Shown here: positions 26,839 through 28,191 of the stretch, piece by piece
Layout: the number at the start of each line of letters is the position of its first letter
Numbering within the stretch: position 1 is the stretch's first letter
Assembly: GCA_048887225.1 (NCBI GenBank)
Contig: JBHLJY010000006.1
Location: forward strand, 64,001-128,000
Reading direction: 5' to 3'
Source: Candidatus Hodarchaeota archaeon
Lineage (GTDB): Archaea > Asgardarchaeota > Lokiarchaeia > Sigyniarchaeales > SOKP01
Length of the DNA: 64,000 bases
Notes under the pieces: generated by a model
Told to the model about the DNA's origin: nothing
What the model saw: only the letters and a program-made list of their open reading frames with translations
Databases searched by the model: none
Position numbers and translations under genes: made by a program

Positions 26839-28191
26839 GGCTTCTTCAACCCCTCTTCATTTGCCATTACAATAACGGCTGCATAAGCGGCTCCTGGACC
26901 TCCGATCGAATGAGCAATGGACCGACCTTTTTCAATTGTGACTTGGTGTTTGCCAGCATCTCCTCTAATCTGAAGAGCGGCCTCTCCTGTGCTCATTATA
27001 CCAGTCGCGCCCACAGCATGTCCACAGCCAATTAAGCCTCCCGAAGGACAGCATGGCAATTCACCATTTAGCCAAGGACCTTCGCCGGGCTTTTCGAAAG
27101 AATTTTCAATCCAAGGACCGCCTTCTCCGAATGGTACAAAGCCTAATTCTTCATAAGAAATTACTTCTTGACCGCTAAACGCATCGTGGAGCTCTGCAAC
27201 ATCGATTTGTTCCTTAATCTTGTTGTAGTCGAGCCCTGCCATTTTATAAGCTGCTTTAGCAGCTTCAATGTTTGAATAAAGCCGACCAATGCTCTCTCTG
27301 TTTCCGATAAAACAATCTGTATTTGCAGCAGCGACTCCGGTTATCCATGTAGGCTTTTCCACGCCGAGTTCTTTTACTTTTTGTTCGTTTGCAAGGATTA
27401 ATGCGGCAGAAGCCTCGGAATAAAGACAGCAATCCAGGAGTTTGAAGGGATAACAGATAATTCTTGAGTACATAACGTCTTCGACGGTTACCTTCATTGG
27501 CGATTGAGCCTTTGGGTTGAGCAGAGCGTTCCCATGATTTTTAATGGAAACCATAGCCATATAAGCCAAAAGTTGAAAATATTCAACTGATTGTTTGCTC
27601 TTCGGTCGGGTTTCCAAATTCTTTGTAATGTGCATTTACCATAGAAACATATGAAGATGCCGCCATCATGCCCATAGGATATTTACGGAATATCGCGAAA
27701 TGCGAATTAAATTCTTTCATAAGTCATATCCGCAGAATAGGCAATGGCATTTAATACTTCTGGTGTTGTAACTCCTGTTTGCTAACGCTTTAAACTAAAT
27801 ATTTACAAGATTCGTCATAACAGTCGTTACATTTCTCCAAACCAATGCAGAGACACAAATCCGACAATCCAGATGCAACTTCAGCATAAGCCATTCTCAC
27901 AGTATAACCTCCCGTTGCTCCGCCCGACGCAATTCTCGTGCCAGGTTTGTCATTCATGCCAAGATAACTATTAGTAAATATATCGGGCATGAATTGGCGT
28001 TCAAAAAGCTCATTATAAATTCCATAAACCGTGGACTGCAAATCTTTATGTATAATCTCTGCCCCGTTTTTATTTGCATCATCAAGAGCCAATCTAGTGG
28101 CATCAAACGCCAGCTCAAAATACGTTTTATCAAGATACCTTGCTCTAAAAGGAGTAATGCCTACTCCGATTATCGCAACTCTATTTGGCAT
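26835..28191 (-). CDS. Intron-containing SCP-x-type thiolase-fold protein; exons 28191-27811, 27781-27716, 27681-27595, 27560-26835; 419 aa after splicing
   Basis: Joined frame reads ...LEKCNDCYDE|QTGVTTPEVLNAIAYSADMTYE|YPMGMMAASSYVSMVNAHYKEFGNPTEEQ|MAMVSIKNHGNALLNP..., collinear with the six paralogs in the window; HDAF and GHAVG motifs present. Confidence 0.9.
27561..27594 (-). other. BHB mRNA intron 3 (34 nt)
   Basis: GAGC AA^A CAA...UUG GCUU AU^A: helix GAGC/GCUU, inner stem AGUUGAA/UUCAACU; removal restores the frame. Confidence 0.86.
27682..27715 (-). other. BHB mRNA intron 2 (34 nt)
   Basis: UAUG AA^A GAAU...AUUC CGUA AA^U: helix UAUG/CGUA; removal restores the frame. Confidence 0.86.
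27782..27810 (-). other. BHB mRNA intron 1 (29 nt)
   Basis: GACG AA^U CUU...AAG CGUU AG^C: 4-bp helix GACG/CGUU with two 3-nt bulges; removal restores the frame. Confidence 0.88.

Follow-up and report, generated by a model that had tools for sequence, protein, structure and literature searches.

Three short inserts interrupt a thiolase-fold gene in the stretch of DNA analysed here (the window, 64,000 nucleotides, G000:C6:64001-128000), and they raise the question of whether they are introns removed from the mRNA, which rules they obey, and whether their removal governs the operon in which they lie. The operon runs on the minus strand and comprises the thiolase-fold gene, a DUF35/ChsH2-like gene and an SCP2-like gene; close relatives of the first are labelled Promethearchaeota (Lokiarchaeota). 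Annotation pipelines call the thiolase-fold gene as two ORFs or fragments. An initial annotation of the locus had proposed that the introns share phase 0, a preceding NAA codon, a length that is no multiple of 3 and an in-frame stop, and that their splicing could gate the operon. The inserts (I1 to I3) were located by alignment with 17 orthologues of the thiolase-fold gene, and the features are as follows.

27811..28191, minus strand: exon 1 of the Cys-less thiolase-fold gene, 381 nt, 127 codons
27782..27810, minus strand: intron 1 (I1), 29 nt, phase 0 after GAA
27716..27781, minus strand: exon 2, 66 nt, 22 codons
27682..27715, minus strand: intron 2 (I2), 34 nt, phase 0 after GAA
27595..27681, minus strand: exon 3, 87 nt, 29 codons
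27561..27594, minus strand: intron 3 (I3), 34 nt, phase 0 after CAA
26835..27560, minus strand: exon 4, with Thiolase_C_1, 726 nt, 241 codons and stop
26341..26838, minus strand: DUF35/ChsH2-like gene (zinc ribbon and OB fold), start codon overlapping the thiolase stop as ATGA
25970..26338, minus strand: SCP2-like gene, separated from the DUF35 stop by 2 nt and preceded, at 9 nt, by a GGAGG of its own

The local description in the initial annotation stands: flanking codons, intron lengths that are no multiple of 3, the ATGA overlap and the adjacent SCP2-like gene are as it gave them, and the introns, placed there within 250 nt, span exactly that distance. Each intron, if retained, halts translation, after 6, 2 and 3 codons respectively (I1, TAA at 27792-27790; I2, TAA at 27709-27707; I3, TGA at 27585-27583). 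All three must therefore go for a full-length protein, and the joined exons encode 419 aa and a stop, 96% identical and ungapped against the intron-less orthologue L002. A dN/dS check had also been advised: dN is 0.034-0.057 and dN/dS 0.023-0.037, with dS near saturation, so that by these substitution measures the exons are under strong purifying selection, not neutral, and the gene is live. The DUF35 gene has a purine-rich, Shine-Dalgarno (SD)-like stretch upstream; the window copy of the SCP2-like gene has no Pfam match, and its orthologues give weak SCP2 matches. A sigma-70 promoter and terminator scan of the locus stayed at chance level, sigma-70 being the wrong promoter type for this host.

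The best solved-structure match of the thiolase-fold protein has an E value of 3e-42, and the closest is an archaeal acetoacetyl-CoA thiolase. Gly stands in place of the thiolase catalytic Cys (window 27930-27900, minus strand), as in Ltp2. The protein may be an Ltp2-like aldolase that partners the DUF35 protein. As in the Ltp2-DUF35 aldolase and archaeal thiolase-DUF35 complexes (PDB 6ok1, 6esq), a thiolase-fold gene adjoins a DUF35 gene; the window protein differs from 6esq, which retains the catalytic Cys, and its gene carries three introns, which are not reported for those complexes.

All three inserts show the geometry of the archaeal splicing motif, the bulge-helix-bulge (BHB): the end of the exon pairs with the end of the intron over 4 bp, flanked by two bulges of 3 nt, and the intron interior forms a hairpin. 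The central helix pairs at 4/4 positions in each (I1, GACG at 27816-27813 with CGUU at 27787-27784, bulges AA^U and AG^C; I2, UAUG with CGUA, bulges AA^A and AA^U; I3, GAGC with GCUU, bulges AA^A and AU^A), which bears out the earlier reading that every 3' end is complementary to its own exon, and inner stems are present. The outer helix is strong for I1 and I3 and weak for I2, which alone folds poorly (z 0.16, against -3.3 for I1 and -3.8 for I3). Homology permits 2-3 registers per junction, and at all three junctions a single one pairs 4/4, puts the cut after the second bulge base and restores the orthologue peptide; the phase 0 call thus depends on the BHB register chosen. A random register reaches 4/4 pairing in 2.3% of cases, or in 0.16% with a 3-bp inner stem. 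At 29-34 nt, the introns matched no group I/II intron or Rfam family at gathering score, with one sub-threshold chance match.

The genome encodes two EndA paralogues and RtcB. One EndA has the catalytic Tyr/His/Lys; the second lacks the catalytic His and is a probable structural subunit. EndA would cut after the second base of the two 3-nt bulges and RtcB would join the exons, a route proposed because of the geometry, the presence of the enzymes and the precedent of cbf5, whose pre-mRNA intron in Desulfurococcales and Sulfolobales is backed by cDNA and cleavage evidence (Yokobori et al. 2009, PMC2738675). The cbf5 intron is likewise short (16-44 nt versus 28-37 nt here), ORF-less, BHB-like and inside coding sequence (PMC2738675); there too the cut falls after the second of the three bulge bases, the interior varies and lineages have gained and lost the intron, and both systems probably use a two-subunit EndA. 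However, cbf5 has one intron at one site in one gene, whereas here three lie in one metabolic gene, thiolase orthologues have at least 11 sites with up to four introns per allele, this genome has at least 14 introns, all phases are used, and the introns are known from sequence alone. In the literature searched (most subscription papers fell outside it), cbf5 was the only case of BHB splicing inside archaeal coding sequences.

The single rtcB gene is itself split by a 29-nt phase-1 BHB insert (G000 C13:33458-33486, plus strand, loci L193/L194) with helix UUGG/CCAA, inside the conserved GYDINCG motif, so that the ligase would need itself. This intron occurs in G000 and, judging from open-frame length, probably in G002, and is absent from most of about 50 relatives. 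The tRNA genes of G000 show BHB candidates of 21-38 nt, several tRNAs having candidates of about 30 nt outside the anticodon loop (e.g. C2:237089-237251, C11:4158-4262), and ARAGORN found only 32 tRNAs in the genome, probably because of multiple introns in tRNA genes. Asgard tRNA introns have been gained repeatedly at BHB sites (bioRxiv 10.64898/2026.10.13.758758); they share the motif, the size class, the occurrence of several per gene and the repeated gains, but that paper concerns tRNA genes only, with no 'mRNA' or 'cbf5', whereas the window introns interrupt a coding gene.

The generality of the proposed rules was judged on 34 independent sites, a lower bound, of which 14 are in this genome and 31 are additional to the window's three. 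Sites came from the thiolase orthologue alignment, truncated database proteins, DNA alignment with congeners, a homology-checked BHB scan and Pfam splits, and the census covered about 2.6 of 4.6 Mb of one congener and 0.2 Mb of another. Of 156 distinct orthologues, in a sample biased towards intact genes, about 30 contain inserts and about 126 have no intron; all 37 inserts of at least 10 nt have a 3/4 or 4/4 helix. The truncated proteins led to further thiolase alleles with up to four introns, and the Pfam splits added the rtcB intron and two acs introns. When 1046 gene pairs of G000 and its congeners (2.8 Mb) were aligned as DNA with no motif imposed, coding inserts peaked at 28-36 nt, with BHB geometry and inner stems. 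Only homology-checked sites were counted, because an ab initio BHB scan did not discriminate (417 real versus 453 decoy matches). Two 'silent' matches, of 45 and 39 nt, were discarded as deletions in single orthologues. A search for introns common to G000 and its congeners returned only operon junctions and shadow frames, and no clear intron emerged when hdrB was searched through Pfam CCG. Ten further BHB introns of G000 are at the following positions.

C4:65663, minus strand
C4:65594, minus strand
C2:11602, minus strand
C1:321212, plus strand
C18:43842, plus strand
C4:215764, plus strand
C4:125370, minus strand
C1:83789, plus strand
C2:89799, plus strand
C2:89906, plus strand

Their host genes are uL11 (twice), a cold-shock protein, an LsrF-like protein, an acyl-CoA dehydrogenase, a PurM-like protein, an AMP-binding ligase, acs (twice) and one unnamed gene; eight were checked against intact homologues, and the acs pair comes from Pfam stops. 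A 33-nt candidate in a probable MaoC-type dehydratase gene (G000 C5:191663, minus strand), which pairs 4/4 in the helix, reads AA^A at either cut and contains two stops, had no homologue for comparison and was left out of the counts. A paralogous thiolase of another genome (L019:2335-2364, plus strand) is interrupted after AAT by a separate phase-0 intron of 30 nt that contains two stops. A public protein cluster (P0016-P0030) holds 227 members, 'thiolases' of 127-157 aa, and all eight that were traced are exon-1 stubs ending at an intron stop; the window's own exon-1 product is likewise such a stub.

Of the rules proposed, only the block to translation by an uncut intron holds across the 34 sites. 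An internal stop is present at 32, including all 18 whose length is a multiple of 3 (3n), and the two stop-less sites frameshift. Stops in all three window introns are unremarkable by themselves (chance 0.2-0.3); the wider result rests on an unbiased set of 16 3n sites, excluding those found through stops or splits, of which six are in this thiolase and one in a paralogue. All 16 have an in-frame stop, against 9.9 expected from motif-keeping shuffles (P 1.6e-4); their in-frame stops number 26, compared with 14 for the other two frames combined (p 4e-5). At non-3n sites the excess is not significant (10/12, P 0.08). Searches capable of detecting stop-less in-frame inserts with convincing BHB geometry, including that of the 156 orthologues, found none. 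At the intron-1 site, 11/11 30-nt variants keep at least one stop, the early one missing in three and the terminal one in one; at site 460, stops are confined to the copies of 30 nt and lacking from those of 31 nt.

These patterns point to a real requirement that the unspliced form be untranslatable, under which 3n introns carry an in-frame stop and the others shift the frame. The rule would most simply arise if delayed or failed splicing yielded a protein with 10 extra residues and selection acted against it; stop-less in-frame inserts might instead decay out of the class. No nonsense-mediated decay-like pathway is known in archaea. Ciliate ultra-short introns, whose 3n class is enriched in in-frame stops (PMC5014332), are likewise tiny, and their retention also ends translation; however, they are spliceosomal, linked to nonsense-mediated decay and under-represented in the 3n class, whereas the introns studied here are of the endonuclease type and most commonly 30 nt long.

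Phase 0, NAA and a non-3n length, true of the window's three introns, did not generalise. Phases 0/1/2 number 10/12/9 at the 31 other sites (p 0.80) and 2/5/4 in this genome; phase 0 with AA before the cut occurs at 5/31; and 18/34 sites are 3n, within a range of 28-37 nt in which 30 nt is commonest (16/34). Phases mix within single orthologous genes (0,1,2,1 in L340-342; 0,2,2 in L343-345, all 30 nt). AA precedes the cut at 13/31 other sites, eight in phase 1 and five in phase 0. The first bulge base is A at 25/31 sites for one cut and 26/31 for the other, and 24/31 introns begin with A. In a solved EndA complex the enzyme stacks on the first bulged base, an adenine (PMC12397907), and such stacking may drive the preference for A at this position. 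The NAA pattern arises because an A-rich bulge consensus happens to fall in phase 0. By chance, three introns share one phase with a probability of about 1/9, share phase and dinucleotide class with about 0.02 (any class, post hoc) or about 0.004 (exact class), and fall within 153 spliced nt with 0.046. The shared phase and flanking codon of the window are a coincidence, and a search by 'phase 0 / NAA' would miss about 84% of such introns. A true insertion or recognition rule for an intron subfamily could draw on the 3/3 agreement in the window gene and on neighbouring site 384, which in orthologues is also phase 0 after CAA. It is nevertheless very improbable, since phase 0 accounts for only 2/11 other introns of this genome, phase 1 has more cases of AA before the cut than phase 0, the published cbf5 intron sits between codon bases one and two (PMC2738675), and the three introns have no common sequence that would mark a subfamily.

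Our preferred reading, in which we have good though not complete confidence, is that these are BHB mRNA mini-introns, inserted separately and in any phase, filtered for stops and removed constitutively. The three would be members of a class found in many genes of the lineage, and most likely tolerated passengers, not an operon switch. The regulatory gate of the initial annotation, in which condition-dependent splicing would switch the thiolase-DUF35-SCP2 operon through ATGA coupling, gained no positive evidence and we regard it as unlikely. It can point to three serial translation blocks, to the intron in rtcB itself, to the crowding of 7/11 thiolase intron sites within 165 nt (p 0.007; 0.10 after merging neighbouring sites), and to a real ATGA overlap; such overlaps can couple translation in archaea (PMC6728339), so that polarity on DUF35 is possible. 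Yet most orthologues are intron-less (in the biased sample given above), intron sets vary between genomes with two of the three sites private to this one, the same tight operon persists irrespective of intron set, DUF35 and SCP2 have their own SD-like motifs, the unspliced RNA has an open 266-codon frame from exon 3 to the DUF35 junction, and the rtcB intron is limited to G000 and probably G002 among the genomes searched.

Far less probable still is a recent pseudogene, a set of assembly errors or tiny DNA elements never removed from RNA. The two fragments called by the pipelines would fit it, and the nearest intron-less relative of the gene, at dS of about 1.5, leaves room for very recent gene death; against this, the 419 codons hold no further lesion and are under strong purifying selection, BHB geometry recurs three times, independent assemblies carry matching inserts with compensatory changes, and the same intron class occurs in single-copy uL11 and rtcB. 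Ribosome bypassing, in which the inserts would be skipped in translation and not cut out, is the least credible of the readings. Bypass signals have stop codons early in a hairpin, which the inserts resemble, but matched take-off and landing codons were not found, phase 1 and 2 introns split codons, and the conserved feature is the 4-bp exon-intron helix with its 3-nt bulges.

On the preferred reading as mini-introns removed from mRNA, their origin can be followed in the distribution of sites. The initial annotation had described the three introns as alike in structure but not in sequence and as no single mobile element, and both statements held: mutual similarity does not exceed that of shuffles (p 0.56-0.97), the introns contain no ORF as a homing intron might, and neither the genome nor 2.8 Mb from relatives yielded a full-length copy, MITE-like or other. 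The comparison with the tRNA introns of this genome that it had also proposed yielded no match to any tRNA locus, and copying from tRNA introns or among the three introns was rejected for lack of sequence matches. The two helix strands are identical at 0-1 of 4 positions in the window introns, giving no sign of target duplication, which was also rejected as a general origin, since just 6/34 sites have strands that agree at three or all four positions. The last 8 bases of I3 are similar to the orthologues' version of the opening codons of exon 4 (window 27561-27548, minus strand), and three codons past the junction Met in the window replaces the Tyr or Leu of orthologues; the likeness is possibly a trace of the origin of I3.

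Among 158 genes, sites 447 (I2) and 534 (I3) occur in this genome only. The I1 site (381) is shared with a homologous 30-nt intron family of 12 orthologues, to whose introns the I1 core is no more similar than a shuffle, so that I1 would be either a separate gain or a saturated homologue of that family. The orthologue mapping and search for compensatory changes that had been suggested were informative at this site: pairing holds in 96% of cells, the pair between exon and intron in the helix is variously U-A, C-G or U-G, and 5 pairs changed on both sides against 1-3 in slid controls, with relatedness not removed. The shared-site introns are scattered over the gene tree, with 10 changes needed to account for the 12 carriers, or 33 losses after a single gain, counts that are descriptive only as the tree has poor support in its deep branches. 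Some introns thus appear to be recent private gains and others old or laterally spread; of the earlier alternative, 'independent gains or long co-evolution', the first fits the window's three, which look independent, but orthologues also share homologous, co-varying, patchy introns. Paired sites lie 2-8 nt apart (spliced positions 35/37, 381/384, 444/447, 534/542, 920/925; p 0.0003 versus uniform), which suggests local hot spots or sliding.

We lean towards the broader view, somewhat better than evenly balanced in our estimate, that Loki-type Asgard archaea have genome-wide, turning-over mRNA mini-introns spliced by endonuclease and filtered by translation, with a stop in each in-frame one, and that homologous introns have repeatedly spread between alleles or been lost from them. 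The introns are a known type in a new multi-intron, genome-wide form, and the translation-block rule is a new result. Many Loki genes would be mis-annotated as fragments, with the 227-member stub cluster for this gene alone. Whether selection against retained introns is older than nonsense-mediated decay can be tested directly with the stop pattern in 3n introns. Asgard archaea are the closest prokaryotic relatives of eukaryotes, and a metabolic mRNA with several introns would, if true, mean that splicing mRNA routinely without a spliceosome is one of their traits.
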